Of a DNA stretch of 64,000 bases, positions 31,441 to 62,420 are shown piece after piece. The position numbers and the translations under genes are program-made. Location of the stretch: assembly GCA_050084515.1 (NCBI GenBank), contig CM114271.1, forward strand, positions 6,696,001-6,760,000. Direction: 5' to 3'. The stretch is from Blasia pusilla (taxonomy: Eukaryota). Numbering within the stretch: position 1 is the stretch's first letter; every line of letters begins with the position of its first letter. The notes under the pieces are model-generated. The model searched no databases and had not been told where the DNA came from. It saw only the letters and a list, made by a program, of their open reading frames with translations.

Positions 31441-31579
31441 TCCACCACTATAGTCATCACCTATGGTTGACCTGCCATAGTCAACCAACAAAGATAGGCA
31501 GATGCATGCCTGCCGAGCACCATCTCCTCATCACTCTCTCCGTGCCATCGAGCTCCTGTGTCATCTCTCTGACTCGGAC

Positions 31580-33329: not shown

Positions 33330-34270
33330 TCCATGTGAGATAGTTGAGGTCCATGGCGCCTTAACACTGTCTCCGGGATGCCTCGGTCATCCCTCGCACC
33401 GCCGTAGTACCGGTAGTGAATCCATGGGCGCTCGCGCATCATCTGCTGAGGCTCCTCCAATGCTCCGGTCACCTCATCCCAAATCATGCCTGGCCCTCCC
33501 TGACGAAAGGCATGGGATGCTGGGAAGCTCACCAACGTAGGTAAGGCTGCCCTCAACTCCCCCACCCTATTGGCCATGTCCAACGGTGGTCTATCATCCC
33601 GTGTCACCACTTGAGATCGACGCCTTGAGCCCAAAATAGCATCCACTGTGAGATGTGGTGCTCTCTGGACTCCACCGTATGCTTGACTCAGTTCCTCTGA
33701 TGGTATTAGGTTGGTCCACCACAGTCGTGGACGATGGGCACGTGACCCAACTCTCGCTGCATCTAACAACACAGCAGGTCCCAACCAGGACCTCACCTGA
33801 TGTACACTCGCCATCACACGTGCACGAGTGTCTCCCAATAACGGCACGTTCTCCAAAATGTACGCTGCAGAACATATTTGACTCTCCTGCAAGTGTCGTA
33901 CTACTCGCAGCATCTCCCAAAACATCCTTGACCTCGGATTGTGCAATCCAAATCCTCGGCCAGCTGATGAATGACCCTGATATGGCCATCCAGAAATAAT
34001 CAAATGAATGGTGCCAACTCAATCCAGATCCTGCGCCCCCACCAAAGAGATGTCGGCGGGTAGCGTATGCTGATATCCCCGTACTGCAGATACCGGCAAC
34101 AACTCAGGATACCTCTAGAACAATCTTGCCACGTGACGTAATGATACTGGCCATGCGGTCTCATCTCTCTCCACATAAAGGTACTGATACACCCGTATGC
34201 TTGCCTGCAATAGTGCAGCCAATCCGGTGCTAATCCCTCCGAAGAGATCTAACACCCTAACACCCTTCTC
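33330..34270 (-). pseudogene. Element B DNMT3-like C5 cytosine methyltransferase domain
   Basis: VRVLDLFGGISTGLAALL..YLYVE; IISGWPYQG (catalytic Cys mutated, TGT to TAT); PRSRMFWEMLR; YILENV; GSRAHRPRLWWTNL; EEP. Confidence 0.9.
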
Positions 34271-34599
34271 TGGGCCTTGCAACACAAGAGGTGTGATATC
34301 CAGTGGGGTCAACATCTCCACTCTAAGAGCCCGATCGCCACGGGACTCTCCCTGCTCTGGGACAAAAACATGACTCCACGCCTGCCTCACGAGGTCGTCG
34401 GCACTCCTATGTAGCTCCCGAGTCGTACCCCACAATGGTGAAGAGGCCTCGCCAACATGGGAAGAGACACCCGCCATGGCGTGTCTCTCCGTGGGACTAT
34501 CCGCTGCTGGGACATCCTCCGCATGTGCGTTCCCCTCCAGCAACTCTCCTGGCCAACTAACACTACCTGTGAAAGCTGCCAACGTGGTCATAGACTCGC

Positions 34600-35122
34600 C
34601 TCGTGATCGACCACCTCATCCCGCAAACTACATGGGTAACTGACTCATCCGGCCGTCACCTGACCGCCATCCTGGCCGATAAGTCTAAACGGTCTCCTCC
34701 CAGAAGTCAAGGATGAATCCTAGGGGATATAACACTGTACTCCCCACCAACACATCGTACGACTCAGCTGGTGTCGTAATCGCATGTGTGCGCACCATAG
34801 CACTATCCGTCGCATGCTCTGGCTGGATTCTGACAACAATCTCCTGTCGAGTCATATACTGAGTGGGTCATACGCCCCCAATCGAGGTCTGTATCTGGAA
34901 GGGACAAGGCTCAATGTCGGCCTTCCATAACCCCCACGCTAAACACGCCGCCTTCCCTAACATCAAGGGTTGCGCTTCTGAATCAAGTAGGACGCGCTGC
35001 GGGTGGTATACTGTCCCCGTCGGACTAACCAAGCGAAATACTCCAGCTCGGTTATCCAGTAACATTACTCCAGGTGTCACCACTGCTCGCTCTATGGCCG
35101 GTCGAGCTGGCATATCTACCAA
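34600..35122 (-). pseudogene. Element B aspartic protease
   Basis: RVLLDSEAQPLMLG (DSG changed to DSE) and YDVLVG; colinear with element A. Confidence 0.8.
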
Positions 35123-35749
35123 CTTTGCCGCTGCCGCATGCCATGACTATGTGGGGAACGTCCCAAGCACCGGCTCTGAGGGCAAGTCCACCACCTCTTC
35201 AACTACCTCTGAACAAGAAGCAATCATCTCTCCACGCTCACACAACGTGGTGGCCAACCGGAACACCTCAGTTGGTCCAACTCCCAACGTCGCCAACTCT
35301 ATGGCCGAAAATAGTGGAGTCTGACTCACTCTGGTGGCCACCTCCAACACTATGGTCGACACTGACTCCACTCGAGCGGGCATAGGAGTTGTCACTCCAA
35401 CTCCTCGTGACGTCGACGTAGGTGCCTGAACTGTAGGCACCGCTGGTTGTCGAGCCACCATCGATGGTGTGTGTAGTGCCTCCGACAATGTGAATGACTG
35501 TGGAACCCTGGCCTGCCGCCCATCGGTCCCCTCTGGTGGGTCAATCTCAACTCCACCTCTCGATGGCTTGGTGCCTCTCGCAGCACCCCGAGTCACCACT
35601 GCAGCTGCCTCAACCTGGGCTGCACTACACATAAATCCCATACAGGCGAGATCCTCACCTGGGTCGGGGTAAGAGGTAGAAGCCGAGTCACACTAGCCGC
35701 TCGCGACTCCGTGCCTTCCCTAAGCTGCATCATCGTCATGGCAGCAATC

Positions 35750-37126
35750 CTCTACTCCAACTGATCGATGCGTGAGAGAAGTGCCGGCTCTGGTGCTCCT
35801 GCTCCATCTCCTCTGGCTGGTGGTGGTCCTCTACCACCATTTCTAAGAAGAACTCCCCGACCTCCTCCAGGATGACCGCCCCCAGGCCCTCGGCCTACCT
35901 CTGGACGTGCCCCTCGGCGAAGGTCAAAACAGCCATCCCTAGTGTAACCATATCTGTGGCAATGGTCACACTGGTGTTGTGGTGGGGCCATCCTCTGTGG
36001 CTCCTGAGCAATCGGAGGCACTGGTGGTCCTCTCCCATGCTGTGGGCAGTCTCTCTGCCTATGGGCCCCTCCACACGTCCAACAAGACCACATCGGTCCC
36101 TGCTGGGCAACATATGTAGGTACGGGTCATTGCCTCATAGGCTCACGATACCCGCCCTGCTCTCTAGGCACACTCGCCCGCTCTCGTGGTACTGGTGCTC
36201 GCTGTGGCACCTGTGGGGTCACCGTCGCTCGTGGACCCATCGATTCTTGAGAAAATCCAGGGGTCACTACTTGCTCCTCACTCATGTTGAGCTCAATACG
36301 CTCAAACAACTCAAAGACCACCTTCAATGTGGGCTTCGCTGTGTGAATCAGCACCGCATCTCGGACTCTCCTCTGTAGTTCTCGGTCCAGAACCCCGTAC
36401 CAATAGTGGACTGACTGCGCCTCAGTCACTCCAAACGTAGCAATGATCAGCCTCCTCATGTGTGTGAATGCCTCTCTCAGACTCTCTCCTGATCGTCGCT
36501 GAAAATCTCAGACTCTTGACTTGTCGGTAAATGCGTGACGCCTGGTAGCTCTTCCCCAACTGTCGAAAGAACTCCATAGTGGGGTTGAAGCTAGGTGGCC
36601 CTCTACCACCAGAGGTCTCTGCCACATCGCCTGTCTCACTGCCCTCCTCTCCATCTAGTCTCCGGGATGATGGTGTGGATCTCTCTCCTCTCACAATCCC
36701 ATCATATGCCTCGCGACCACTAGTGGACACATACCCTGGAGCCCAATACATCCTCCAAGCATCGATCTCTACTGAATATAGTGATCAAAACTCCATGTAG
36801 TCATCCATCGGAGGACCCTCCAAGTGCTGGAACAACCCCTTCCATGCCATGAAAGGATTAAACCGTGTCAGGGTCTGTATCTCCTGGAAGTCGCACCATG
36901 TGTCGAACTCATGGATAAAATCATCTAAGTCGATGGTGCCCACTGCACCCGAGAAACGACGCATGCCCGGATGGCCCATGTCAACCATCTCCTGCCAAGT
37001 ACTACTGTCTCTGTCTGTGATCTCGTCACCAGACCCAATGTCCAGTGATGACGATCCAGCCACGGATGGATGTCGAAGGAGCTCCTCACTGGTAACCCCT
37101 CGGTATCTCACTCCACTCTGTGTCAC
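35750..37126 (-). pseudogene. Element B gag
   Basis: RFSGAVGTIDLDDF..FQHLEGPPMDDY; knuckles CWTCGGAHRQRDC and CDHCHRYGYTRDGC. Confidence 0.8.
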
Positions 37127-38169
37127 ACCACTACTACTACACGCACTACCCCGTTCTTCGGAACCCTGGAAGAACGCCGTGATGAAAAATCCTGTCTCAC
37201 CCGCTCAAGCACTCAGACTTACCGAGAGTCTCCTACACGCCTCACTATCTCACCTATGCTAACATCAATCCTGTGATAACATACCCGGCCTCACGCACGC
37301 TCAACACTCAGGCTCACCATGAGCCTCCCAACTGACTCACCTAACCTAGCGACACTCTCTCGGGTCATACACGCGACCCCTACTCGGCAACCGCCGTATA
37401 TCCACCAACATGCTACACATGAAAAGAATCTACACTCATCACCATCACTGCACCCATCTAGCACCAGCTAGTACCCGATACCCAGCACTCTCAATCACAC
37501 ACGACAAGTGTGGGAAAAGGGACTCGAATGGGTAACCTCATCACGCCCTCCAACCTACTGCATCGTCAACATGCACTCCTCCACATGATATGACAATCTC
37601 CGCAACACAACACTCTCCTGGACCAACACGTTGATCCTCCCGTCAACAGATGCGGAAAACCCGTCGGCTTCATGCACACTGCCCCTCCATCGTCAACTCT
37701 CGCAATGCCTTGTCGCGTCCCAAACATCATGTCAGGCACGCTGTCCAACTATGTCGGTCACTCACAACGTCAAAATAAATGGGGAGGGGGCGCGCACTCT
37801 ATCGCGCGCCCCATCTCGGGAGGGGTGCGCCGCCGCCGCCCGCCGCCTGCCCCGCCTATCGCTGTCGCCGCCGCCGCCGCGTCGGCCCCATCGCCCGTCA
37901 GATCTCTTTTCTTCTCTCTCTCGACATCCTCACTCGCGTACACCCGACGCTCCACCACACACTACACTCGGCTGTTGTCCCGCGTCAGTCCGTACCAGCA
38001 AAATCTGAGAAAAACGGACAGCGCTTCCGCCCACGGCCTTCTAAACAGAAAAATGAAAAACACCCGCAACACACGCATCTCCTGGGGCTCCCGACCAAGG
38101 CAACTCGCTTGCCTACCTGCAAACAACGAATTCCCACCACCCCCTTGACATTTTTCTCATGTGAAAATT

Positions 38170-38641
38170 AAGAGTAGTAAAAACGGCACACCTGGCCTAA
38201 AACTCCACTCCTCAATCTACATCGGCATATCGAGCCTCGTCCACCCTGTGCTATCAAGGAATCCGGACGCTAGCACCCTAGTCCTAGCTCACACACATAC
38301 AAGGGAGGTGCTCCAACGTTCAACATGAGAAAGATGGCTTAGGAAAGCCATCTTCCTCTCTTATATAGGGTTGGGAAGAGCCAAAAGGCTCTTCCCCTAA
38401 AAATAGCCCTCCCCTTGGTAACCTGCGTGCACAGTTTACCAGGGGCGGGTGACCTGGTCAACAAGTCACCCGATTGTAAAAGACCACAACATAAAAGTTG
38501 TCAGAAACAACGTTCCTGACACAATGAATCTATCCTCAACCTCATCTGACACCGTGGGACAAAGTTACACTCAAGATTGTCCGCTGGCTCCTACGCCCTA
38601 TCCACGATAGATCTCTGCCTATCAGCTTCTCAGATGTGACA
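38170..38641 (-). repeat. Element B 5' repeat A1 (U3/promoter-like, TATA flanked by hairpins)
   Basis: Near-identical to 29703-30084 apart from a ~90-bp indel; minus-strand CCCTATATAAG at ~38360-38370. Confidence 0.9.
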
Positions 38642-39567
38642 TGGAATCTGCCTTTCAATCAGCAAAGAGGCAAAGGAGGGTAGCCAAGAAGGAAGACACG
38701 GAGAAGAAGGCTGTAGAGACATGGGCGGCACAAGAAAGATCAGCCATGGAGAAGGCATTGGATGAGATGAGAGCAGAGAAGGCCGCCTTGGAGGAAGAAT
38801 TACAAAAATTCAAGGCAAATGCAACCATCATGGAGGAGGCGACGACTGAGAAATAATCCATGGAAGCAACCATGGAGTCTACAGCGGTTGCAGAGGATGT
38901 ACCCCGTGCACATGAACCCCCTATTCCTGAACCTCATACTCTTGAGCCAATTGCAGCAGCGCCTAAGGAGCGTGTGGTTCTTCCAAAGGCACCGGTGATG
39001 CCTCGTAGTAGGGCTAAGACCAAGGCACCTAGAAAGGTGAGAATCGGTCTTGCTATGTTAGAACTTTGTTTTCTATGTCTATGTCACTCTTGCCTCACAG
39101 GTGACGACCTGTATGTGTTGCTCTTGCAGGCATGAGGGTTGTGATGAAGACTATTGTAGGAAGGAGCAGTGGGAACAGCCGAGATACCTAGTGTAAATAT
39201 CTAGCTCCTTACTTTGTTATTAATTTCCATGTTTGAATATGCCTTCCTATGGTTGCTTCATTTCCTTTCTTCACACTTTGGTTCCTTTCCTTATACAGGC
39301 TGGTTGGAGTTAGGGACCACGTTGGAGCAAATCCTAGATATGACATTTTGTAGTGGGTCTAGAAGTTCCAAAGCATAAAGTACAACTTTCATCAAGAGCG
39401 TAGCTCGCTGGTAGCAACATTCTTTCTCATTAGCTACTTGGCAGCACCTGTCTTAACTTCTATTACATTAAATATATAAAGCTCCTTTTTTGTGTCACAC
39501 TTTCACTCCAGATGCTTTTTTTCTGAGCTTACAATATCGTGTCACTTGTAAACTTTAGAAAACTTAC

Positions 39568-40253
39568 TGCACTGTTCGCTTGCACGGTTCGTCCGATTAC
39601 CATGTAGTTAATTATGGCACCATTTGTTAGGTGTAAGCTAATTTATCGAACAATAACTTACCTTACATGGAACACTTAGTGCACTGTTCGCTTGAATAGT
39701 TCGTTTGATTTCCATCTAGTCAATTCTAGCACCATTTGTTAGCTGTAAGCTAATTCATCAAAAAGTAACTTACCTTACATGGAACACTTAGTGCATTGTT
39801 TGCTTTAATGGTTCATCCGATTTCCATCTTGTCAATTTTGGCACCATTTTTTAGGTGTAAGCTAATTCATCGAATAGTAACTTACCTTATATGGAACACT
39901 TAGTGCAATGTTTGCTTGAACAGTTCGTCTGATTTCCATCTAGTCAGTTCTAGCACCATTTGTTAGGTGTAAGCTAATTCATTGAATAGTAAGTCACCTA
40001 ACATGGAACACTTAGTGCACTGTTTGCTTGAATGGTTCATCCGATTTCCATCTTGTCAATTTTGGCACAATTTGTTAGGTGTAAGCTAATTCATCGAATA
40101 GTAACTTACCTTATATGGAACACTTAGTGCACTGTTTTCTTGAACAGTTCGTCCAATTTCCATCTAGTCAATTGTGGCACCATTTGTTAGGTGTAAGCTA
40201 ATTCATTGAATAGTAAGTCACCTAACATGGAACACTTAGTGCAGTGTTCACTT
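39568..40253. repeat. 112-bp tandem array, 6 full copies plus a partial copy
   Basis: Unit starts (TGCA.TGTT) at 39568, 39680, 39792, 39904, 40016, 40128 and 40240. Confidence 0.95.
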
Positions 40254-40299
40254 GGGTTGTTTGAATTATTCTTGAGAAAGTTTTTTTGAAGAGTCTTCA

Positions 40300-43200
40300 C
40301 TTTACTTTCCATAATATGAATTCACATTGTATTGGCCGCATGCAACCATCACTTCAACTCTGCATGTCTATACGAGCATTTGATTCCCGCAATATGGCTT
40401 TCACACATGAACTTGCTCGAGTCTTTTGCGCTTCGCATACTTGCTATTGTTGATCACCACGTTGGAGGCGTTCCACCATTCGTTGAGTTCGAATAGATTC
40501 CAATTTTTTCTTCTGCTTCTTCACTTGGCTGCAATTTTTCGGTGTTATTTCTACATACTTGACCCACAACATCTCCAAATCCACTTTCAAGTCCAACTCC
40601 TAGTTCATAGTGCTGAATCTTTGCTTGGGAGCAAAATGCAGCTTCATAGCGGGTTGGGTTATGATCTCATGGTGAATGTGAGAATTGGTGAGACTCGTTT
40701 TTTTCCTTTTCCGACCATCCGTCATATTTTCCACAAAGTCCTTTCTTTGAATCAAACTCCAATCAGCACCATAGACTCTCTCCATCCGTGTTGGCGGAGT
40801 GTTTTCCTTGTCCGAGAAGTGTGTAGCATTTAGTTTGCGTTTGGCCTTCAAGTCAAGTACTTTCTGGATGACATCTTTTAAAAGAGTAAGGGAGTGGTCC
40901 ATGAGGATAGGACAATGATCTACTTTTCTTGATATGTCTGTAACCAATGAAACCAAATCTTGCTCTCCAACTACTGTAGGGCCTTTATCATCGGTCATGG
41001 GGAAATTAAAGTCTACAAAGGTATCGAGTTCCCCATCCCCAACTACCTCACCCATCAATGCAATCATCCCCCCCGCAATAATCCCCTTCTTTCTACCCAA
41101 ATACATGAAGATATCAGTGTCTGTGTGACCTTGCATTAGAAGAACCTTCACTTGCACAAAACAATAAAAAATTTCAGTTTTGAAATGTTGGAACACCGGA
41201 ATCGGAAACCAAATGTATCCCCTTTATGAAGGATGAAATAGCAACAAACATGATGTTTACATGTGTTCCCCTCAGTAGCGTGGGGGCACGTGCAGGTGAT
41301 GTCATCCTTGTCATAATCAACAACTTCATGAGTTTGGAGGGGTTTTGATTGACTTTTCACAAATGCAACTTTCCTCCCGATGATGGAAGTTAACGTAACA
41401 TATTCATGTGGAGTGGACTTGGCATTCTTTATTGCCATGACCATATTGTTCTCCACCATTTGATTCCGCACACACCCTTGCATCTTCAAATTCGAGGTAC
41501 ACGAATAGTACAACTCTACTATGTCAACTAGCACATGCAATAGCCACGACAAGCGACGTTGAAGTTGAGTTCTCCTGGAAGCTTTCAAATGAGTCGTTAA
41601 CATGGAATGCCAACGCTCCACAACGCCAGTTGTATTCTGATTTGCTCTCCTTATGGTGCTCCGATTATGGTTAGCCCATCTGCGTATCTTGGGAATCCAA
41701 TATGCTTGGAAGTACTCACAAAATACTAGTTCTTGACCCTTGCATCGATGTAAAAAAGCTTCAGCAGTTACCACAGGATCTGCAAAGTCAAGAAAGAGGA
41801 TTTATGTGAGTACTCCACATTACACTCCTTCGATAGGTGCCTCCGAACACATATTGGAATGTTCAAAGACCTATTCAAAACTATTCCACGTGTGCTTCTA
41901 AGCCTCATAATTGGAAACAACGAGGCGGTGATTTCAAAAGATGTGTTCCTGTATCTGTGGTATACATGACTCGAGCAAGCTTTCTATTCATCCAAGACTT
42001 GATAATGGGATCTCTAACCTTCATATGCAAGTTTTTTATCTACGCTTTGCGGATGTGCCAGATGCATAGGAATATTATGATTCCCGGAAAGGTTTCTCTG
42101 AATACAATGGAGGAAAAAAGTATTACACATTTGAAGAACTAAACCATTGAAAGTGTTATATAATGAATTTTTTTATATTTAAACGTACATAACACAACAT
42201 GAAACAAATTCACGTATCCATGGCGTTGCAACTACTAAGCAAAATGGAACACCTGCTGGTTTGTTTTGTTCTCAATAGAACAAAGCCAAACTAGGATGTT
42301 GTTGGACCCACATTCTTACTACAGTTGCATCACATGGACTGTAATGATGTGAATTTAGCTTCAATTGTAGTATGATGTTGCAGATATCTTTCATGGTGAG
42401 ATTCATATCCCTTGACCATATGACCTTCTCAATTGTTCTACCCGAACACCTCTCTTTGATGTGTCGGTAGTGTTCGTTTAGAATGTCTGCAGGCGAAACA
42501 CCAGCTCTCAACAGACGTTCAACAAACTCACGGCATCTATAAGATAGAGGTGATGCAATATGAGCATTTGCATCACGTCTATCTTATAGATGCCGTGAGG
42601 AGGTATCTGAACTATATGTTGAGGATGTTCCAACATGTTTACATTGAGTGTTCAACAAATGACGTGATTGACATTGAATGTCCCCGACAAATAATTAAAC
42701 CAACGAACTGCCAATGAGATTGAGGAAGGGAACAAAAGAAGGGGACACCTCGAAGCTGACATTGCAGCAAGCAAAAAATGAATTACGCAGGACCCGAAGC
42801 ATTGGGAAGCATTATTCACCTTGGGCATCAAAACCGCACTAGCTCTTTCCTGCTCCTGTGTGTGTCTCAAACTCCTCAACTCCTCCCTGCTGTTGCTGGC
42901 CCTCATGTTCACCTTGGGGGGCTCACAATATGCCTCTGCGGATCCTCTCTGCCCCGACTGCCTTGCCCCGCGTGACCCTAATCCTTGTCTTGCCTCGGGT
43001 TTCCCACCATTTACCTCGGATTTCAAAAGATGGGCTCATGCAACTCGGGCAGCCCCGCATCGACCTCGGGTTCGCTTAACCCGAGGATGAATAGGCACGA
43101 GGATTCTAGGAGAGTGCATCATTGGATGACTTCCCTCACTGTGCATTTCGAAAATACCATAACTCCTCACTCTGAAATAGTGAACAAATTTGACCTCGAA

Positions 43201-47100: not shown

Positions 47101-48619
47101 ATTGTTGATTTTAGCCGGCTACGATTACTCGTAACCCCGGATCTCCCCGTTCATTGCTTGGGACTTGTCTAGATTTCAACTTCGACTTATTTATTTCACA
47201 TGAGCAGTTTGTGTACGTAACTGAACTTATCTCAGATCGTTAGTGCTATTCAGAAAGACGACAGGGACCCTAACGTGCAATCGGACAAACAAATTTGTCG
47301 TAGTCTGGGCCACCTTGTCAGGAAATTTAATCAACTGTAATCTGCTCCTCAGGATCGTCAGGCATCGTCCTCATTGGGGGGGAATGCCCCCTTCTTCCTT
47401 TTCTGGTCCTGTTGTGGCCTTCAGGTTTTGACTCTTTGAGTCCCCCTCTTTTGTACTTCCGATGGGTTTTCCATCACTCGTTTTTATCGAAGTGCATCTT
47501 TGTTCTTTCCTCAAGGGGCCAGAGAATACCTTTCTACTTTGCCAGATTAGGGGAAAAAGCAGAAACTTAGAATCTCTCTCTTTTAAACGCAAGGTTTATC
47601 TATAGGCTATGATCAGTTCTCGGGGCTTACTTTTTCTAGAAAATCAGTGAACCCCACATTATGTCATATCGGGAAATGGATGAGCCTTACTCGTACCTCC
47701 GATTTGGGTGTTTAGTTTTGGTTTTAGAATCTCTCTTTTTCTTTCGTCGAGTGACGACTACCTCCCTCAGAAAGCACAGCTCTGTGCTTGCTGGCCCTGA
47801 AACAACAGTAAGTGGTTGGCCCAAAGCCACCTGGATTCGCTGTCTTGAAAATCCAGCTGATATTCTCGCTCTTCAGTCTTTCCTTAGGATGCTACTCCTA
47901 CAGCAACTTCCATGTGGAAATCCAGGATCGAGGAACTCGGGCTATGATTTGCATTCTGTCCTCTCTGTCACTTCCCTTAACATCCACCATACAACCATCT
48001 TTGGCTATCTGTCACTGCTTGATCTGGCCTGCTTTCATGCTGCAAATATGCGAGCGTTAAGTGTCATGGCTACTGAGTAACTGGGGCCCAAACATCAGCT
48101 CGTTGGTTTATTGTCTCTCCCAGAATGGCTTCCCGTGGCGGAGAAAAGCGAATTATAACTCAGAAATTGCTAAGTCTGGCATCACCAGAGCTGTTCATCC
48201 TATTGAGTTGCCTATGTTCACTGCCCAAAGATGCTACACTTGCAAACAGTGTTCTTTTGTAGTCCTAATAAGCTAAGGTAGATCGTGTTGTAAAGTGTTT
48301 CTTGCCTGTCTTGGCTGACATTAGGATGCGCCGCACTAACAATCTGATTTTATGCACTAATACTACGCGAGTGTTCCTCCTCTGGAATGGCGATATCTAC
48401 TCTTTCCTCCTGTGACTAAAGGTTCTGACGAGTCTAATTTCGAGGTGTTCTCTCCCTCCCTCTAGTTTCCCTTGGCAACACGGACAATTCTAAGATTATC
48501 AAGCACTTTCCGTCACACCGCATGTATTACTTAGTTCCTTCATCAACCATGTGCAAGAAGGGCTGATCTAACTGGTGTGTGTGTTACTCTAGGAGTCTCT
48601 CTCATAAGATCACAAGGTC

Positions 48620-49123
48620 ATGGATAATACTCAGCAAGAAAAAGACGTCCCACGACAAGAACAGTTACCAAGATGGCGTGGAGCGCTGCAAACCACGATC
48701 CGTGCTCCAATTGAGAAAGCATGGGATCTCAGTGCAGATTTTTGTGGTATGAAAAGGTGGGTTAATACCGTCGACATCTGTGCAAAAATTCAAGGTGAAC
48801 ACCAGACGGCAGGATGCGTGCGGTACTTGGAGGGCAATACGTTTCCAAGACCAGATGGTGGCAAGTCCTGGGCGAAAGAGAAACTTCTGGAATTTGATGG
48901 CGAGAACCATCGTATGGTCTACACGATGCTGGACAACAATTTCGGGCTGAGCAAGTATGTATGCACCTACATTTTGCAGGACGTCGGTGACGGGAGAACC
49001 CATGTAGACTGGTCCTTTGAGGTGGACGCCATGGCCAACAGGACCGAGCAGCAGCTGAAGGAATACATGATTGGAGTGTACAAGGTATCTCTTGAGCGAC
49101 TTGAAATGCTCTGCAATTCTTAG
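48620..49123 (+). CDS. SRPBCC/START-fold (Polyketide_cyc2) protein, lachrymatory-factor-synthase-like, 167 aa
   Basis: Intact ORF with WRG..TIRAPIEKAW..DF, GCVRY, WAKEKLLEFD, YTMLDNNFG, VDWSFEVD and a C-terminal helix. A branch-point/acceptor-like CTAAC...CTCTAG just upstream (~48568-48592) suggests a 5'UTR intron. Confidence 0.88.
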   Translation: MDNTQQEKDVPRQEQLPRWRGALQTTIRAPIEKAWDLSADFCGMKRWVNTVDICAKIQGEHQTAGCVRYLEGNTFPRPDGGKSWAKEKLLEFDGENHRMVYTMLDNNFGLSKYVCTYILQDVGDGRTHVDWSFEVDAMANRTEQQLKEYMIGVYKVSLERLEMLCNS

Positions 49124-52524: not shown

Positions 52525-54479
52525 TGTCACATCTTTTAGGGTAGATCGGTGAGATCTAGAAGAGCGCCTTCGTGAGTAGTCCAGGACACGCTCAGTAGGC
52601 CAAGGATGACATGCTGAGGCCCCTAGAAACCTGAGAGAATAGGTTTTCCCTTCGTTTCGGCTCATTTGGAGCCATATTGAGGAACTTACTATTTTAGGTA
52701 AGTACCATTTTGAGTATATGATCGACTTTCTATTTTTGGTAAGTGGCCCTTGACCTCCTACATCAGGTCAAGAGCCAAGGAGGTGACTTGGGAGAATAGG
52801 TTACCATGGAGAGAGCTTAGGAGAGGGGAGGGGTATACCTCAAGGAGAGAGAGCTTGAGAGCTCATTCTCTCTTTGTTGAACCTCTTGGCATGAGGCGGC
52901 GGAGCTATGGTCCCTTGCCTTGTGAGTATAACCCAAGCCTCTCATTAGGAGAGTGGGTTTGGTTTGACATGAGAGAGAGTGCACACCTTTGAGAGCCATG
53001 GTGTGAGATGGTGTAGAGAGAGATTGGATCATACTTTACAAAGAGAGAATAAGAGAGTGAGAGAGCCTCATGGGGGAGCTCGCTGGTCACTCGCTGTTTT
53101 TGCAGGTTGGGGACCGTGTTCCCCGTTCAGCGGCTCATGGGAGTGCTCACCAAAGCAAGGGTTGTTTTGATTGTTCTTTGCATTTGCTGATTTTTCGTGT
53201 GGAAGAGTGGCGCGCGGAAGCGTTGCCCAATTTCTGATAGGGATTGATTATGGTCAATCTTGCAAAATTGCCATTGCTAGGCGATTCTAAGGGTTAAATT
53301 GTTCAAACCCTAAACCAGCCACCACGCCGGCGGTGGCCGTCGTCGTCACCGGTCAACGGTCAACCATCAGTGTCAACAGTCCACCGTCGGTTGTTGCCAT
53401 TGCCGAGCCTTGCTCAGAGCTGCATTCGGCCATTGTCCATCCTCTGGTTGCCATTGCCGCCATTACGAAGTGGAGGGTCTTCCACGACCACCATTGATTC
53501 TCTGACTTGCGCCGCCACCACGTACTTTGGTTTGGCCGCCACCATCATCGTAGTTTTGTCATCAACCACCGATGGTAGATGACTTCCGGTTATGGTGTTT
53601 GAGTTTTGATTTCATGCTGCTATGTTGTGATTGGTAGCTGCTCGACGACGATCGAGTACCGTGCCGTGACGCCCGTAGCCGCAACGCGCGGCCGATTGCC
53701 ATGTCGTGCCGCTCCTGGCCGCACCACACCGTCTCAATCACGGAGCTGCACCGTCATTGTGGAGCAAAGTGTGGGTTTATTGTTGATTGAGGAGGGTATG
53801 CCGCCAAGTGCCGCATCCCACCATCGAGGGTCGTGCCGTTCCGTGCCGCCTGCAACACCGCACCGTTCGCTGGAACCGCACTGTCCATCAAGGAGTTTTA
53901 AGCAACGTCAGTATGGAAGGAGTATGAATTGCTGATTGGAGGAGTTATCTCCACGACCGAGTTCGGGTCAAGATTTGCAGTTGCTGAGGAGCATCATCGA
54001 CATGTGTTCAGGTTACCCATTCTGGTCCTTTACCCTGCACGTGTGAGGGATTCTGGGATTTTGGTAGTTTATTTGGGGATATTGGGTGTGTGGATGCTGA
54101 GAGCTTCATTTATGTATGTGGTTTAGGATGTCCGGAGTTGAGGGTAGATTGTCGATAAGATGATAGCCTGGTCAATTTTCCGCACCACGCCGCTTGTTGC
54201 CGCACGTTACACGTCTCGAGGAGGGAGAGTGTAGATCGAGTGCTGTATGATTGGGATAAGTGATTGAGGGATTACTCGCGAGGTTGAGAGTGATCGTGTG
54301 AGAGGGGTACGAGGGCCATCACCGCATCCTTTCTGGATTTTGAGAGGCAAGGTGGTGGACCTGTTAGTAGCTCTGGAGGGTTTACCCGGAGTGGTGCGAG
54401 GTTTCGAGGGTCTCCACATGAGAGATCACCTCGATCTCTCACGTGTGTAGAGGAGTTTGTGAGCACATCGCCACACATT

Positions 54480-55760
54480 ATGAGTGGTCCTACCAATTGG
54501 ACCGCATAGGTTTTCAGGTGCAGTAGGCACGATTGAGTTGCACGATTGCATAGCAGAGTTAAGGAGTTGGTGTGACTCCAAGCGGGCCAGGAACTCTAGA
54601 GAATTCAACCCGTTTACAACATGGAACGGTATGTTCCAGCATTTAGAGGGGGCGCCCATGGACAATTACCATGAGTTCTCTCATAGATATGCATGTGAGA
54701 TCGAGGCGTGGAGGCTCTACTATGACCCACATTATGTGTAATGGACGGAGCCGTTCCGAGATGAGGAGGAGGAGTCAAGAGAGGCTACTTCCTCTTCCAC
54801 TAGTGATGTTTTAGGAGGAGTCACTCGCACGAGAGTAGTTGCACCGTCTAGTCGGGTTCGTCCCAGGTTCAACCCTGTGGTTGAGTTCTTTGCTAAGTTG
54901 AGGACGAGTTACCAAGGGGTACAGACGGAGAAGTTGCGGAGCATCCACGACTTCCAGAGGCGCCCGGGTGAGAGTTTGCGTGAGGCTTACACTCGCTTGC
55001 GCCGGTTGATCAACGTCACTCAGGGGGTGACAGGGGCTCAGGCTATCCAGTCATGGTACGCGATGCTGGACTGGACCCTGCGGACATGGATACGGGAGGG
55101 GTGCTTCTTATGAACACCTCCCCTACATTGAGAGATGTTTTTAGGACCTCCGAGAACATTGAGCACAACATGGTGGAGGAGAGCGTAGCCACCATGGGTT
55201 CTAGGCGAGAGCAGTCACGATTTTTTGCACTACCTGTGCAACAACGTGGACTCCGAGATAGGTCGATTGTGGCACCACGAGCTCAAGGAGGATACCGGGA
55301 GGCCGTGCCACAGAGACCTGTGCCTTCATATGCGACTCAACAGCAGCCGCCTACTACTACTTGTTGGTCATGTGGTGGAGCCCATCATCAGCACAATTGC
55401 ACTCGTCAGGGTCATGGATGTATGCATCAGCATGGAGGAGGAGATGGTGCTGCACTAGGAGGTTATGAGTGTGACTATTGTTAGAGGTATGGTCATACAT
55501 GCGCCAAGTGTTTCAGTTTACATCATGAGTTACGTGTGGACCGAGGGCCAGAGAGGGCACCAGAGCGAGTAGCCGGTCCAGGTGGGCCTACAGATCGTGC
55601 ACCAGGTGGTCCCGTTGGGGGACGAGGAGCTGGAGTTGCCCAACAGGGTGGTGGAGCTGCTCGTGGAGGAGGTAGAGTCCTACCACCTAGACGCGTCGAG
55701 GGAGATTTCGGGCGTGAGGCTAGGATGGCTGCTCAGATACATTAGGTACAAGAGCAGGTT
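54480..55760 (+). pseudogene. Element C gag
   Basis: RFSGAVGTIEL..FQHLEGAP; FQRRPGESLREAYTRLRR; CWSCGGAHHQHNC; CDYC. Confidence 0.82.
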
Positions 55761-56432
55761 GTCGCTATGGCATTGAGATTACCTGACGCCGGATCCGTGG
55801 CATCGACATCATATGTAGCACCCAGAGATATGGAGGATCCTGGTTGGATGTGCGGGGTTGCCGAGATGGAGGCCGCTCCAGTTGTGATATGTGGAGTAGC
55901 CGTAGAGTTGGATCCATAGCGAGGGGAAGCCAGGAAATAGACTAGGCTTCCTCAGTCTTTCACGTTGTCTGAGGCGATGGGGACCCCATCGATGGATCCT
56001 GATCAGAGTTCCTAGAGAGTTGGTGACGTTGTTGGTGTGTAGGCACGGAGGGCGATGGGAGAAGTGAGTGCGACGACTCTTATTGTTGATGCTCAAGAGG
56101 GGCATGTGTCGAGCACGTTGTTGGGGGCGGCCACCATTGTGTACTGTGCTCCTTTATTTTCTGCTTCCGATGTTATGACATTGGGGGGTACGCCCGCCAA
56201 GGCTTTTCGGCTAGCCGCTACGCTATGTGAGTGTGGAGTTGGAGTTCCTGCATCACGTTCAGAGGTGATTATAGAAGAGGTGATGGACCTAACCTTGGAG
56301 CAGATGCTCGGGCCGTCCACGTCAGATTAATGGCAGGCTGCAGCTGCTAGGATGGCAGAGATGCCCGCTAGAGCCGCGACAGAGCGTGCCATGGCTTCTC
56401 CTGGTGTTGTGTTGCTTGATAACCGAAGAGAG

Positions 56433-56850
56433 CGTCTATGGTGGACCAACTTGGTGCCCCATGCGGTGTTACGGAGGGCGTATGCGAGAGTGGAGCGCCC
56501 CTCCCATTTTCCAGTGGATTCCATTATGAATCCAGTTTGTCGATCACAGGCAGTGAAGCACGATGATCGACCACCATTGACTGTAGTCAACAGGGTAGGC
56601 AGGTCGCGGGCAGCCTTTCCCACGTTTGTGAGTTTTCCCACTTCCTATGCATACAAGCAGGCCGGTTCTGGCTTGGTTTGGGATGACCAGGTTCAGAGGT
56701 TGGTGGAGCCCAACGCCAACGAGAGAGAGCGGGCGATGGGATTTCCCCCAAGAGTGACAGCAGTCCCGTCAGTATCAGAGGCATCACGACGCCATGTCTT
56801 GGGTCCGGCGATGGACCTGAACTGCTTGACATGGATCTTCAGCTTGGGAG
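56433..56850 (+). pseudogene. Element C C-terminal half of the DNMT3-like domain
   Basis: RLWWTNL...EPNANERERAMGFPPRVT..SEASRRHVLGPAMDLNCL (motifs VIII-X); the N-terminal half and the protease are deleted. Confidence 0.85.
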
Positions 56851-57188
56851 TGGCTGATCAGCGTCGGATGAGATCACAATAGATCACTGCGGTTGCGTTG
56901 GTAAACCCCATGCCTACCGAGATGGTGGAGGCAGTGGCTAGGGGCGAGACCCAAGGAGATCGACACACCAGGGGAGATTGAGAGAGACACCCTTGGACTT
57001 CTTGGGATGTTTTGCAGGTATGCCAGGAGATGATAGCCACAGCATCGAGTGTAGTTTCGGGCACTGCATGTGGAGCAGATCAAAGTTTGTAGTTGGATGC
57101 AGGAGAGCGGTCAAGTGTTGTTGTTCGAGACGGGGTTGCACCATAGCAACCACCGATATCCGCGCCGGAGAGTCCTACCGTACTCACG

Positions 57189-58570
57189 ATGGAGACTTGG
57201 GAGCCAGATATAGGCCCTAAGTTGACAAGAAGAGAGCGGCGCCGAATACATCAATTCCTCAGGAGTTATAGGAGTTGCTTTGCATTTAGCATGGAGGATT
57301 TGGGTACGCTGAAGGGACCGGGGATCTTCCGACGATCCTACAAGTACAGTGATATGGAGAGGGCTCTGATTCAGAGTAGGAGCCATGACTTGGTTGGAGC
57401 AAGACTAGTGGAGATGTCGCATGGGGAGTATGCATCTACCATTGTCATGCCCGCCAAGAAGGATGTGCATGGCAATTGGACAGATAGGCGGATATGTGGG
57501 GATTACCGACGTATCAATCGGCAGACAAAGTCGGATAGGTATGCCATGCCCACCCCTAAGCAGATCTTTGATACGATTGGTCATGCAAAGGTTTTCAGTT
57601 CATTGGATTTGCGAGCCGGATACCATCAGCTGCCTATCAGATTGGAGGATAGGCAAAAGACGGCATTTTGGGGCATCGATCCTCACGGGAAGGATTTTTT
57701 GTACCAGTGGCGGTTCTTACCATTTGGATTAAAGAATGCCCCGGATGAGTTTTAGAGGGTCATGGATAGGATCTTGGCTGGTCTGGATTTTGCTAGGTGT
57801 TATATTGATGACATCGTAGTCTTTAGCGCCACGGTTGAGGAGCATGAGCGACAACTAGAGGAGGTATTTCGACGATTGTAATTACATGGGCTGAAGTTAC
57901 ATCCAGGCAAGTGCAAGTTCTTCTACGACCAGATGGAGTACTTGGGTCATACAATATACCCAGGGGGCCTTGGAGTTTAGCAGACAAATGTAGAGGCTAT
58001 CTCACGCATTCCACGCCCTACAGATGTGAGCCGTGTTTGCGCATTCATTGTGGTACGTCAAGGGATTCAGTTTGAGAAGACGCTGACCTTGCTGACCAAG
58101 GTGGATCACGTGTGGCACTGGGGAGATGAGCAGGAGCAAGCATTTCAGTCCCTCAAGGATAGGTTGACGTCCGCGCCCATCTTGAGGAGACTCATGGATT
58201 GTCCTTTCCAGTGGCACACAGATTGGAGGATGTTGGGGCTTGGAGCGGTGCTCACCCACCATGATGATGAGGGTAGAGAGTTTGTGGTGGCTTATGCTAG
58301 TCGCTCAAACAATGTTGCAGAGGCAAAGTATAGCTTGTATGAGGGTGAGTGCTTGGTTGCGGTGTAGGCTGTCGCGCATTTCAGGTGTTACTTATTCGGA
58401 AATCCCTTTACCATCATCACTGATCATCAACCACTGAAGTGGTTGATGGAGTCCGACAAGCTTACAGAGAAGCTTGCGAGATGGGCTTTGTTGTTGCAGG
58501 AGTATGATTTTCAGGTGGTACATAGACCTGGGACGCTCAACCAGGATGCATATGGGTTGACTCGTAACTC
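57189..58570 (+). pseudogene. Element C reverse transcriptase and RNase H
   Basis: ICGDYRRIN, LDLRAGYHQ, LPFGLKNA, CYIDD, FQWHTDW, LARWALLLQEYDF. Confidence 0.93.
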
Positions 58571-58949
58571 ATGCCCGAGTCACCGAGATGCGACTGGAGC
58601 TCGATGGCCTGGAGAGAGTGATGAGGAGTCAGTGTGAGGATGGCACGCGTTAGCCTATTTAGGCATGTTGGCTATGGAGAGCCAAAGTGTGGAGACTTCA
58701 ATGGCGAGGTCTAGAAGAGAGTCCTTGGATCCCGAGGCCAGTGAGGAGACGACAGATGGACGAGATATTCATGATGATGGAGTAGTCTTGGAGTACCTTC
58801 GTACTGGCAGCGTTGCAAGCACCCTGGGTGCTAGAGAGCAGGATCGGATCCTACAGCAGGCCAGACGGTTCCGTTGGAAGGGGACACATGTTTTGAGGGT
58901 TTGGGAGGATGGCAGAGTACGCATAGTGCCGCATCCTTTGTAGAGAGCA

Positions 58950-60182
58950 CAACTAGTGCAGCATGCCCACGAGGAGTTGGGTCACTTTGGGGTGAAGCGG
59001 ACGTACAGCTTGCTCCAGATTCACTATTGGTGGCAAGGCATGTAGAGTAACGTTCAGCAGTTTGTTGCGAGGTGCATGGTGTGTGATCGGGTCCGAGCAT
59101 CGTTCAATGCTCCGACTCCACAGTTGCATCCATTATCGATCATGGGCTTAGGGTATAGACGGAGTTTGGATTTTGCAGGACCTTTTCCTTTGACGGAGCG
59201 TCACAGTCGTTATGTGTTGGTGATGGTCGAGCACTTCTTGAAGTGGATCAAGTTGGTTGCATTGCCTGACAAAGCGAGTGAGGGAGTAGCTTATGTCTTC
59301 CTTGACATAATGCTCAGTCATTATGGCGCACCGGCTGAGGTGTTGACAGACCAGGGTACCGAGTTTCGCGATGAGTTCCAGGCCTTGTGAGATCAGACGC
59401 TGATTGACCATCGCACGACTTCGCGAGATCATCCCGAGGCGGATGGATTAGCGGAGAGAGTTGTGCAGACGGTGAAAAGGGGTTTACGCAAGTATGGCTT
59501 GCAGAGAGATCAACTAGGAGATTGGAACCTCCAGTTGCATTGGTTGGCGATGGGACACACATTCAACAGGGAGGCATCCTTATCATCTTTTTCACCGTAC
59601 TTGCTACTTAATGGCCGAGAGCCACATTTACCTGTGGCCATTCGTCAAGATGTTGGTGAGGTGTTGGACCTTGATGGCCCAGATGTATGGATACGAGCAT
59701 ATTCTCAGAGGGCTGAGTTGTTTCGGAGAGTGATGCCCATGGCGTTCGAGAACTTGGAGATTGCGCAACATCGGGATACGTTGAGGTATGCAACTATTTG
59801 GGATGGTGGTTATCGACCAACTATCCGAAGTTTGCAACAGACGGCACAGACGACGTTGGATGTAACTACAGGGCGCACGATCCTGAGAGTGCGTGACATT
59901 TTGCCATCCGGTGTTCTCTTGCTGGAGGGATGCGATGGTATGGTATGGAAGGACCATGTGCGTAATTGTGCACCATGTCACCTTCCTAACATTGATGGTA
60001 CAGTAGATCCGAGCTTAGCAGTAGTTCCAGCAGACTTACGTTGTATGTTGTGTGGTTCTGCCCGTGGTGCGGCCACGATGCTAGGATGTGATGGATGTTC
60101 AAGAGGTTGGCATATGGCATGTCTGACACCACGTCTCATTAGGGTTCCTCGGGGACCATGGATATGTCCCAGATGCATATAG
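58950..60182 (+). pseudogene. Element C integrase with C-terminal PHD finger
   Basis: [81 protein letters not shown]. Confidence 0.92.
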
Positions 60183-61078
60183 AGGAGATACTAGGTAGGT
60201 TTTGATTCCAAATTTTTCTGTGATATGGATGACAGGAAGGCGACTAACGATGGGGCCACATGAGCATCCGGCCTTCTTGCTCTTAGCGTTTGAGAGATGT
60301 ATGTCATGGTAGGTAGGGATAGATGGCTATCTGGAGTTAGAGGGACCTAACCACCAGCTAGGGGGGCGATTGGAGATATATTTTAGTACTTCTTGTCTCG
60401 TTGTTTAGATTCCATGAGTTAACATGGGCTCGAGCGTGCTTGTGTGTGTGTTCGGTGACAACGATGTATGTTGTGTAGCGATGTGTATGCGCACGACAAC
60501 CGTTACGTCTTTTAGGATAGATCGGTGGGATCTAGTAGAGCGCCTTTGTGAGTAATCGAGGACACGCTCAATAGGTCGAGGATGACGTGCTGAGGCCCCG
60601 AGAAACCTGAGAGAACAGGTTTTCCCTTCGTTTCGGCTCATTTGGAGCCATATTGAGGAACTTACTATTTTAGGTAAGTACCATTTTGAGTATATGGTCG
60701 ACTTTATATTTTTGGTAAGTGGCCCTTGACCTGCTACATCAGGTCAAGAGCCAAGGAGGGGACTTGGGAGAATAAATTACCATGGAGAGAGCTTAGGAGA
60801 GGGGAGGGATATACCTCAAGGAGAGAGAGATTGAGAGCTCATTCTCTCTTTGTTGAACCTCTTGGCATGAGGCGGTGGAGCTATGGTCCCTTGCCTTGTG
60901 AGTGTAACCCAAGCCTCTCATTAGGAGAGTGGGTTTGGTTTGACATTTAGAGAGAGTGCACACCTTTGAGAGCTATGGTGTGAGATGGGGTAGAGAGAGA
61001 TTGGATCTTACTTTATTGGAGATATTTTAGTACTTCTTGTCTCGTTGTTTGGATGCCATGAGTTAGCATGGCATCCAA

Positions 61079-62420
61079 CGAAGCACTAGTTTGCGAAGAT
61101 CCTCGTCGTTGGTGACGCCGTCTTCGTGTTTTACGGGACTTCGGTGAGGCCTCGTACGCCTCTGCGGAGGCTATGACTGCTTCCAGGGAATCTCGTTGGC
61201 CTCGCCGGTAGTACCGGTCCATTTCTTTGGACAATCCCAACACAAACCAATCTACCAATTATGAGGTAGTAGTGTGTTCAAGTTTATTCACAAGGCTTCG
61301 AAACCTTTGGGTGTATTCCCTGAGAGTTTCCTTCTTTTTACGTTTCAGGTCGCGAAGCTTTGTAAGAAGCCTGTCCTCGAACTCCAGGTCACGGAACTCA
61401 TGAAGAAAGGCTTCCAGTATCCTTTTCCGGGTTTCTGTGACGTCCGCTCCGAGACCCTCGTACCATTGGCTTGCTCGCTTCTTAAGCAGGCCAGGAAAGA
61501 CTCGCAACAAATCCTCCTCTGAGCCTTCCCCATTAGCCTTAGCTACATGGATAAATTCAAGCATAAAGTTTTCAACATCATCTCGCTGTCCCCCTGCAAA
61601 CGTGGGGTATCTTAGCAGCGTCTTCCTAGTGTTGGCCATTGGGAATGGTCTGCTGTTGGGTCCCAAGCTTGATGCTCGGGAGGGAGGAGGCAGCGGTTCC
61701 GATGTAGTTGATTTGGTCGGCTTCTCGTCGTGTGAGTCCCCAAAGGGGTTCCAGGTTTACTCTTCGTCCGACTATGAATTGGCAGGAGACATGGTGGGGA
61801 GCGTATTTCTGTCCCTCTTCTCGCTCTTGGGCTGCATGCGAAGACAAAGACTGGGAGACACCCCCGGAGGTCTCCAAGACGGGTGATCTTCTTGTTGCTT
61901 ATTGCGTCGATCAGCTCGCTGATCGCGAAGAGGGCCAGGAGACTTCCATGAGTCCCTTCTAGGATTCGGGAGCTTAATTCTGCACCCACGATCGCCACAA
62001 GGTAGAGGTCCATGGAGGGAAATTAAATCTTCCTAATTCTTAAAGCCTACAGGAGTGTGCAGGTGCTCTTAATCTTCCTCCCAAGTTTTCCTCCCATCAA
62101 CAGAAGTACCGGGTCATCACCAAGTACAACTGACGTTCATGGGCGAAGCACCCTTTGGCGATTGGTTTTTTGACAATACTTATTAATTTTTCTATCTTTT
62201 CTAGCACCAATGCAGCAAACCGGTTGTTATCTTCTGTCATCCATTCTCCGAGGGGGATAGCTAGAGATAGCACATGGTCTTCAGTAAGAACTAGCTGGTT
62301 GGGTCTTCTAGGAGACGAGTCTTCTTTCCCCGCTCCTGGATTTCCCATGTGTCTCTCTTCCTCTCCTGCAAAGCTTATGATCCCCGGCAGCAGCGCCAAA
62401 AAGTTTCTGGTCCTCTATGT
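61079..62420 (-). mobile_element. Athila/Tat-like Gypsy 5' fragment (PBS and gag)
   Basis: Minus-strand TTTTTGGCGCTGCTGCCGGGGA (Athila-type PBS) at ~62381-62402; gag ORF 61259-61666 (PTFAGG..VENF..ASQWY..LEAFLHEF..ETLREYTQRF). Confidence 0.75.

Follow-up and report, generated by a model that had tools for sequence, protein, structure and literature searches.

A PHD finger at the integrase end of Gypsy retrotransposons that encode a Dnmt3-like methyltransferase, a candidate chromatin tether in the green lineage

The stretch of DNA considered here, referred to as the window, comprises 64,000 nucleotides of Blasia pusilla (assembly GCA_050084515.1, contig CM114271.1, positions 6,696,001 to 6,760,000 of the forward strand). 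It contains three copies of a Ty3/Gypsy-type long terminal repeat (LTR) retrotransposon, which were delimited by self-BLAST of the 64-kb window: copy 1 (10279-19222, minus strand), copy 2 (29557-38641, minus strand) and copy 3 (52526-61071, plus strand). The element is ordered as a putative gag, protease (PR) and a Dnmt3-like DNA methyltransferase (DNMT), followed by an in-frame UAG and then by reverse transcriptase (RT), RNase H (RH), integrase (IN) and a PHD finger. The pol order of the Ty3/Gypsy type was confirmed by the Pfam families RVT_1, RT_RNaseH and rve and, for PR, by tblastn with the relative P0106; domains were also mapped by tblastn with intact relatives (e.g., P0106 and P0078). 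The PHD finger in the window copies is an ordinary feature of their family, and the copies themselves are dead. As discussed below, the finger may serve as a chromatin tether of the integrase.

In copy 3, pol ends with the PHD finger, which spans 60042-60176 on the plus strand (Pfam PF00628 on the translation, E 1.3e-10). Copy 1 carries it at 10599-10733 on the minus strand (E 1e-10, again on the translation). In copy 2, where the finger lies at 30291-30425 on the minus strand, it is cut by an in-frame TGA (30309-30311) that sits between zinc ligands six and seven, and the part before this stop matches PF00628 with an E of 8.8e-8. As the scores for copies 3, 1 and 2 are 41.6, 41.9 and 32.5 bits, compared to a gathering score of 24, the domain is beyond chance by far. 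The eight zinc-ligand codons (C4HC3) are all present in each of the three copies, with an identical spacing of C-x2-C-x11-C-x2-C-x4-H-x2-C-x14-C-x2-C. A single residue separates the finger of copy 3 from the stop codon (60180-60182, plus strand). According to the translations, the open reading frame (ORF) at 59391-60182 (plus strand) carries the finger at its end, and the two minus-strand copies end in nearly the same way. Upstream of the finger come the zinc-binding domain of the integrase, its rve core and a beta-rich C-terminal domain (CTD), in that order. None of the Pfam scans of the window ORFs or of their relatives returned a Chromo family, which leaves the PHD finger as the only recognisable reader on these integrases. 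A preliminary description of this DNA had stated that all three copies finish pol with a C4HC3 PHD finger and that this finger takes the position of the chromodomain in chromoviruses. Both statements are borne out: the PF00628 gathering score is exceeded in all three copies, the positions then given agree with the present ones to within a few bases, and the finger comes after the integrase CTD.

To place this finger among known ones, the clade sequences were compared with each other and with solved structures. In an alignment of 49 sequences, which are 39-78% identical, the eight ligands and P253 are invariant, with D234 and W257 being at least 90% conserved. The closest PDB sequence matches are CHD4 PHD2, KDM5B/5A PHD1, DPF2/3, KAT6A, ATXR5, PHF21A, BAZ2A/B, AIRE and UHRF1 (E 2e-14 to 1e-6), and no fingers of the ING, BPTF or TAF3 type occur among the 60 sequence matches listed. 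Identity to the solved PHD fingers of the unmodified-H3 class amounts to 35-48% over the finger, and the signature C-D-x-C, W/Y-H, P-x-G-x-W-x-C-P-x-C is shared with them. The integrase tail of 263 residues was modelled with AlphaFold2; the predicted local confidence (pLDDT) is 86-96 over the PHD finger and the overall predicted TM-score (pTM) is 0.38, and the finger is not confidently packed against the rest of the tail. Foldseek places the modelled finger on the same solved proteins, with a root-mean-square deviation of 0.5-1.7 Å over 45-54 columns and target-normalised TM-scores of 0.74-0.82 against single-finger chains. The titles of these entries include the BAZ2A PHD with an unmodified H3 10-mer, UHRF1 with the unmodified H3 N-terminal tail, and ATXR5 and MOZ with histone H3. 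One listed entry is a UHRF1 PHD with an H3K4me3 peptide (3sow), and further fold neighbours are structures of the UHRF1 PHD with PAF15 or Stella peptides. Whether judged from sequence or from structure, the closest solved relatives of the finger (DPF2/3, MOZ, BAZ2A/B, ATXR5, UHRF1, KDM5A/B and BHC80) mostly bind the unmodified H3 tail. The earlier suggestion of a chromatin reader holds in the sense that a true, conserved PHD finger is present whose closest solved relatives read the N-terminal tail of H3.

The residues that determine the ligand of such fingers were counted in 105 PHD fingers of canonical length from the clade. Readers of H3K4me3 have a cage Trp two positions before the His. In the clade fingers this position is Gly in 94 of the 105, which argues against an aromatic cage for H3K4me3. 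In solved complexes, the Asp after Cys3 and the Trp before Cys7, within the P-x-G-x-W loop, hold H3R2 and the H3 N-terminus; these residues are found in 92 and 100 of the 105 fingers, respectively. Several readers of unmethylated H3K4 additionally contact the lysine via acidic residues near Cys1 and Cys2, and it is here that the two branches of the clade differ, as detailed below.

The second domain of interest is the methyltransferase. PF00145 matches copy 2 with an E of 9.8e-6, and tblastn with intact relatives finds the DNMT in copy 1 (13996-14936, minus strand) and copy 2 (33371-34267, minus strand), whereas in copy 3 the DNMT segments of P0106 and P0078 detect the C-terminal half alone (56424-56846, plus strand). 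Motifs I, IV (PCQ), VI (ENV), VIII and X align with those of the relatives. In copy 2, motif IV reads PYQ instead of PCQ, which means that this dead copy no longer has the catalytic Cys; copy 1 retains PCQ, with stops nearby. The DNMT of the intact relative P0094 has its best PDB matches in DNMT3A/3B/3C (E 1.3e-6), ahead of M.HaeIII and M.HhaI, and a phmmer search of the PDB with the DNMT ORF of the window itself gave no match at E 0.01. Judged by its sequence, the element DNMT is Dnmt3-like, as published for KnitGypsy-Dnmt3 in the main text of PMC5890265.

The association of both domains was followed in three samples with different seeds. The first sample holds 102 homologues that were found with the PHD-containing integrase tail of the window. 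The second was drawn from metagenome contigs with RT/RNase H peptide patterns as sole seed, giving 410 stretches, 351 of them confirmed, of which the best 80 were kept. The third comes from an exhaustive HMMER search with the window DNMT ORF, which yielded 811 cluster representatives at E<=1e-3 (378 at E<=1e-10), and the best 150 of these were examined; a search by words with the DNMT region of P0018 returned 4 proteins only, and the exhaustive search was used instead. Within the first sample, the full C4HC3 pattern is present in 92 of the 102 homologues, and BLASTP with the P0106 DNMT detects a DNMT in 35. Another 21 begin too near the RT to be judged, 44 are short fragments, and 2 have unexplained gaps between RNase H and integrase, one of them with a partial DNMT, so that not one of the 102 PHD-seeded homologues is demonstrably without a DNMT. 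A flag by PF00145 in only 6 of the 102 had given the impression that the PHD finger is much commoner than the DNMT, but this idea was dropped in view of the BLASTP result. Pfam underdetects the element DNMT, as it flags 11 of 16 proteins that are all positive by BLASTP.

Seeding by RT/RNase H leads to the same picture. Among the best 80 of the 351 confirmed loci, the DNMT is found upstream of RT in 51 of the 55 with enough upstream sequence, and the PHD finger after the integrase in 46 of the 54 with enough downstream sequence. Both could be judged in 36 loci: 28 have both domains, 6 the DNMT only, 2 the PHD finger only, and none has neither. The PHD pattern occurs in no frame of the 8 PHD-less loci, and one DNMT-less locus, L073, has decayed. 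Only 4 of the 80 loci retain a frame that is open through the CTD and contains a canonical PHD finger. In the DNMT-seeded sample, 79 of the best 150 of 811 have retroelement domains and 41 reach at least 60 residues beyond the integrase CTD; a PHD finger is present in 39 of these 41, 38 times by the C4HC3 pattern and once, in P0213, by Pfam. The two exceptions are P0224, which has a decayed tail, and P0282. The preliminary description had paired the chromatin reader with a methylation writer in the same element. Both parts of this claim stand, as the DNMT was located in all three window copies and the pair recurs whichever domain is used as the seed.

P0282 combines a DNMT and an integrase without a PHD finger. 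At residues ~890-1040 it has a Lys/Arg-rich stretch and a Tudor-like match (PF21743) that stays below threshold (21.8 vs 27.2 bits). A Tudor-like segment at the position of the PHD finger would fit exchangeable targeting modules, and a swap of readers is possible.

The clade is built from two domain layouts. Layout 1, to which the window copies belong, is PR-DNMT-RT-RH-IN-PHD, with the PHD finger at the extreme end. Layout 2 is RT-RH-DNMT-IN-PHD, followed by a tail of 35-507 residues without Pfam domains; its members include P0036, P0078, P0141 and P0176. In two other layout-2 members, P0252 and P0269, a G-patch is located between DNMT and integrase. The PHD finger directly follows the integrase CTD in both layouts. 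A tree of RT-RNase H plus integrase with 62 rows was built with FastTree and IQ-TREE, and layouts 1 and 2 form the two sides of one branch (SH-like support 100 and SH-aLRT 100, respectively). Copy 2 nests in the layout-1 group beside P0009 and P0010. Because the layouts lie on either side of a single branch, the DNMT has either moved once or been captured twice, the PHD finger staying on the integrase. One protein, P0039, is nested among DNMT-bearing relatives and keeps the PHD finger, with no DNMT between RNase H and integrase; its N-terminus lies only 100 residues before the RT, so that a DNMT further upstream is possible.

In the lineage of the window, a stop codon stands between the DNMT and the RT. 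Copy 3 has an in-frame TAG at 57144-57146 (plus strand), a candidate read-through site in the context TAG CAA CCA (57144-57152), and the same nine bases are found on the minus strand in copy 2 (33059-33051) and copy 1 (13698-13690). The homologous site also maps to two nearly intact loci, L001 (5083-5091) and L002 (4661-4669), in which gag-PR-DNMT and RT-RH-IN-PHD are in the same frame with one TAG between them: the 1370- or 729-codon ORF and the 1048-codon ORF are separated by TAG alone. The junction could be located in 21 related loci, and 20 of them have an in-frame stop at the homologous position; 17 of these 20 stops conform to TAR-CAR-YYN and 5 to the strict UAG-CAR-YYA, which is the leaky-stop signal of the tobamovirus type. 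Such a context points to programmed read-through between gag-PR-DNMT and RT-RH-IN-PHD. The conserved UAG puts DNMT and PHD finger in different primary translation products in the lineage of the window, and most DNMT molecules would be made without the PHD-bearing half if read-through is real. A stop before the RT also explains why many database proteins of the clade start ~100 residues before it. In the full-text literature searched, no account was found of a UAG read-through context of this kind in LTR retrotransposons.

The individual copies differ in their state of preservation, and all three are pseudogenes. Copies 1 and 3 form one family, being 86-88% identical by BLAST and 90% identical over the 3′ half of pol, and copy 2 belongs to a related family that is ~75% identical to both. 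In copy 3 (plus strand), an internal deletion took PR and the N-terminal half of the DNMT. Downstream of the TAG, tblastn locates RT at 57429-57971, RNase H at 58101-58517 and the integrase at 58920-60029, with its zinc-binding domain at 58920-59105, rve at 59145-59459 and the beta-rich CTD at 59580-60029; the beta strands of this type of CTD fall in residues 166-189 of the AlphaFold2 model. Eight in-frame stops occur between 57147 and 60179. Copy 2 (minus strand), mapped by Pfam and tblastn, retains PR (34664-35131), the TAG (33057-33059), RT (32208-32744), RNase H (31635-32051), rve (31032-31346) and CTD (30438-30911) besides the DNMT and PHD finger given above. Its ORFs match, in order, the Pfam families DNA_methylase, RVT_1, RNase H, rve and PHD, and 30291-33056 contains 4 in-frame stops and no frameshifts. 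Copy 1 (minus strand) consists of a partial 5′ repeat (18920-19222), PR (15288-15818), DNMT, the TAG (13696-13698), RT (12843-13384), RNase H (12283-12618), integrase (11340-11877), CTD (10749-11219) and PHD finger, and its pol does contain frameshifts. No Pfam match to gag was found in the upstream 4 kb of either copy 1 or copy 2; zf-CCHC is present in the intact relatives P0108, P0142 and P0163. An intact counterpart is provided by P0106, a polyprotein of 2811 residues with DNMT, RT, RNase H, integrase and a terminal PHD finger that is collinear with the window copies; at residues 1004-1095 it weakly matches an aspartic protease (E 0.0019, below the Pfam cut-off). The nearest named proteins to the integrase tail come from Marchantia polymorpha (71% identity), Calypogeia, Riccia and Sphagnum, and more distant named matches from Chromochloris and Tetrabaena.

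The repeats of these elements follow the layout A-coding-B-A-B in copies 2 and 3, in which a B segment of 56-139 bp stands both before and after the 3′ repeat. In copy 3, A spans 52526-53038 and recurs at 60502-61015, with B at 60370-60427 and, shortened, at 61016-61071 (all plus strand); the homology of the first B with copy 1 extends to 60498. Copy 2 is arranged in the same way and reads, from 5′ to 3′, repeat (TGTCACATC..., 38164-38641), coding region, B (...GCGCACGACAAC, 30086-30208), repeat (29697-30084) and B (29557-29695), all on the minus strand. Copy 1 stops after B, its end at 10279 coinciding exactly with the end of B and the expected start of the 3′ A repeat, so it is without a 3′ repeat. 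The repeat pairs have diverged by a Kimura two-parameter distance (K2P) of 0.04-0.08; the A pair of copy 3 is 94.5% identical (K2P 0.057) and the repeat pair of copy 2 is 95.9% identical. By eye, no obvious purine-rich tract or tRNA-type primer site adjoins the repeats and no target-site duplication is evident at the ends of copy 3.

The window as a whole has a G+C content of 44.6%, with a CpG observed/expected ratio of 0.65 and an excess of TG and CA. An open ORF of 171 residues at 48608-49120 (plus strand) matches Polyketide_cyc2 (E 5.5e-20), a family with the START/Bet v 1-like fold, to which PYR/PYL-type proteins also belong. This ORF has the appearance of a host gene and lies 3.4 kb upstream of copy 3. 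Other remains of mobile elements are a Retrotrans_gag ORF (61262-61756, minus strand) that abuts the 3′ end of copy 3 and an ORF with a weak SWIM zinc-finger match (41151-41801, minus strand). A tandem array at 39446-40305 has a period of 112 bp, and six overlapping 300-nt copies in it are 65-89% identical to the reference copy.

Raw RNA-seq reads from three runs with the same species label were placed on copy 3. Depth is low, with 23-47x over the repeats and 3-4.5x in the PHD bin, and the first mate of the pairs is mostly on the minus strand. About 95% of the RNA reads on copy 3 are just 95-99% alike (e.g., 339 of 354 in run X22), which points to transcription of related copies rather than clearly of copy 3. 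Reads joining 60368 to 61015 were seen 8, 21 and 4 times in the three runs, and DNA contigs of run X1 contain joints of a similar kind. These joints probably reflect copies whose B resembles the second B of copy 3, or copies without the internal A repeat.

The element of the window belongs to the known Gypsy-DNMT3 kind of streptophytes. The reference case is KnitGypsy-Dnmt3 of Klebsormidium nitens, a Gypsy element with a Dnmt3-like DNMT in its pol (de Mendoza et al., 2018; PMC5890265); Gypsy elements with Dnmt3 also appear in PMC12344493 and in a preprint (10.64898/2026.05.21.726589). KnitGypsy-Dnmt3 (PMC5890265) and the window element both have a pol in Gypsy order that encloses an intron-less Dnmt3-like DNMT. 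Moreover, the legend of its Fig. 4c gives the A-coding-B-A-B repeat layout seen in copies 2 and 3, which supports membership in the Gypsy-DNMT3 kind. This likeness is judged from the published description of KnitGypsy-Dnmt3 rather than from K. nitens sequences, and no named K. nitens sequence was among the matches of the homologue searches; the nearest named proteins of the window element are from liverworts and mosses, not from Klebsormidium. A possible difference is the PHD finger of the window elements, as the word PHD occurs 0 times in the main text of PMC5890265, although its Fig. 4c and supplements may show one; its text passages are also without a UAG read-through context and a second domain order.

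PHD fingers as such are not new to transposons. They have been reported in retrotransposons in general terms (PMC6673714, main text) and have been called a "common accessory domain" of Chlamydomonas transposons (PMC8557442, main text), with REM1 (Perez-Alegre, 2005) and the elements of Kapitonov and Jurka (2003) as the examples cited in passages of PMC6673714, PMC8557442 and PMC9940879. REM1 and Gypsy-7a_cRei of Chlamydomonas resemble the window elements in that a green-lineage Gypsy LTR retrotransposon encodes a PHD finger. However, the legend order RT, RH, PHD, INT for Gypsy-7a_cRei suggests a PHD finger before the integrase, and this legend does not list a DNMT (PMC9940879). The EpiLTRs of Cymbomonas and Euglena likewise combine an LTR element with a DNA methyltransferase and a chromatin reader, described in the preprint text as "epigenetic toolkits" (10.64898/2026.05.21.726589). 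As described there, they carry an adenine methyltransferase, a DNMT4-like DNMT and a chromodomain, in contrast to the Dnmt3-like DNMT and PHD finger of the window. In the full-text literature searched, which does not extend to the figures and supplements of PMC5890265, no paper was found that pairs a PHD finger with a DNMT in a retrotransposon; the clade-wide co-occurrence of both domains, the two layouts and the UAG context are unreported details in that literature.

The best explanation of these data, to which a probability of roughly one half is given, is that the PHD finger acts as a chromatin tether of the integrase in a green-lineage Ty3/Gypsy clade with a Dnmt3-like DNMT. The comparison that comes closest is with the chromoviruses, which also have a histone-mark reader at the very end of the integrase after the CTD, presumably for integration targeting; in their case the reader is a chromodomain, in the window elements a PHD finger. 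What the sequences show directly is that the finger exists, where it sits, how well it is conserved, that it accompanies the DNMT across the clade and which solved fingers are closest to it; the ligand, the tethering and the read-through are inferred. In the lineage of the window, the primary product would be gag-PR-DNMT, and the leaky UAG (TAG CAA CCA) would let a minority of ribosomes pass into RT-RNase H-integrase-PHD. After reverse transcription, the integrase would bear the PHD finger at its extreme end. The finger would then bind the H3 N-terminal tail, most likely with K4 unmethylated, and integration would be tethered to nucleosomes away from H3K4-methylated promoters, following the same logic as for the chromodomain.

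Several observations weigh against this explanation. Firstly, the window sub-clade has lost the acidic residues of the loop after Cys2 that are common in the unmodified-H3 fingers of host chromatin proteins (BAZ2A/B, BHC80/PHF21A, KDM5A/B PHD1, DPF2/3, MOZ PHD2, ATXR5 and UHRF1), with which the clade fingers share ligand signature and fold. This loop is non-acidic in the window sub-clade (mean net charge -0.34, compared to +1.74 acidic in layout 2); its consensus there is GAAT, and the flank before Cys1, AVVPAGxx, is without an acidic residue, whereas the layout 2 consensus does carry acidic residues (CE.C...DDE). The exact ligand may therefore differ between the layouts. Secondly, the intact-looking PYR/PYL-like ORF 3.4 kb from copy 3 indicates that insertions are not obviously confined to gene-free heterochromatin. 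Thirdly, all three window copies are dead and show merely what the family encoded. Lastly, the PHD finger could be there to serve the DNMT rather than the integrase, as the two domains co-occur almost perfectly.

This last point leads to an unlikely but coherent alternative, in which the PHD finger would be to the Dnmt3-like domain what the ADD is to the catalytic domain in animal DNMT3. In DNMT3, the ADD (GATA-like plus PHD) is fused directly to the catalytic domain and regulates it, and it reads the same H3 mark class (H3K4me0-type). By analogy, a PHD finger reading unmethylated H3K4 would place or activate de novo methylation at the newly inserted copy or around it, either within an uncleaved read-through polyprotein or within the DNMT-integrase-PHD protein of layout 2, where the DNMT is directly N-terminal to integrase-PHD. 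Co-occurrence is seen from either side (DNMT in 51/55 and PHD in 46/54 loci, both in 28/36; PHD in 39/41 DNMT-seeded relatives; 0/102 PHD-seeded homologues demonstrably without DNMT) and would fit such coupling, although it may be plain shared ancestry. The functional analogy with animal DNMT3A/3L, i.e., an H3K4me0-type reader together with a Dnmt3-type writer, fits the Dnmt3-like sequence of the DNMT and the mark class read by the solved relatives of the finger. The window reader differs in being a plain PHD finger on the integrase, behind a stop codon and ~1000 residues of RT, RNase H and integrase away from the DNMT; owing to the conserved stop, the DNMT would be made in abundance with the upstream product and the finger only with the rare read-through product. 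Furthermore, the DNMT changed position once (or was captured twice) while the PHD finger stayed on the integrase, P0039 keeps the finger with no DNMT between RNase H and integrase (one upstream being possible), and P0282 has a DNMT and no PHD finger. In favor of the coupling, the isolated catalytic domain of KnitGypsy-Dnmt3 was inactive in yeast, for which missing co-factors are one of the reasons offered in the main text of PMC5890265.

A far-reaching form of this idea, which is quite improbable, is that this deep green-lineage Gypsy clade encodes its own split de novo methylation system. The Dnmt3-like writer and the H3K4me0-type PHD reader would cooperate, the element's own new copy or landing site would be methylated only in chromatin without H3K4 methylation, and the leaky UAG would set the dose of reader to writer.

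It is also rather unlikely that the PHD finger binds a non-histone ligand, such as a host chromatin protein, a non-histone N-terminus as in UHRF1-PAF15, or nucleic acid, or that it mainly stabilises integrase multimers. The window sub-clade being without the acidic loop and flank of layout 2 would agree with this, as would the absence of confident packing in the model (pTM 0.38), and the UHRF1 PHD structures with PAF15 and Stella peptides illustrate that this class of finger accepts non-histone ligands. On the other hand, conservation extends to the Asp after Cys3 and to the P-x-G-x-W loop, and every close solved relative is a chromatin protein. Finally, a functionless relic or a chance cysteine pattern, as might be suggested by the pseudogene state of the window copies, whose pol is interrupted by 4 to 8 or more in-frame stops, is hardly credible and is ruled out by conservation across the clade, given a Pfam E of 1e-10 in two independent families, ligands that are invariant down to ~40% identity, and retention of the finger in both layouts of a deep clade.

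That some retrotransposons bring along a cytosine methyltransferase of their own calls into question whether methylation is purely a defence of the host. In the clade described here, a reader on the integrase accompanies the Dnmt3-like domain in two domain orders, from green algae to liverworts and mosses, as far as the few named proteins indicate. If read-through is true, the UAG-CAA context would allow the elements to set the ratio of the DNMT product to the integrase-PHD product, an unusual recoding choice for a plant LTR element. The link between PHD finger and DNMT offers a handle on how the element methyltransferase is aimed.

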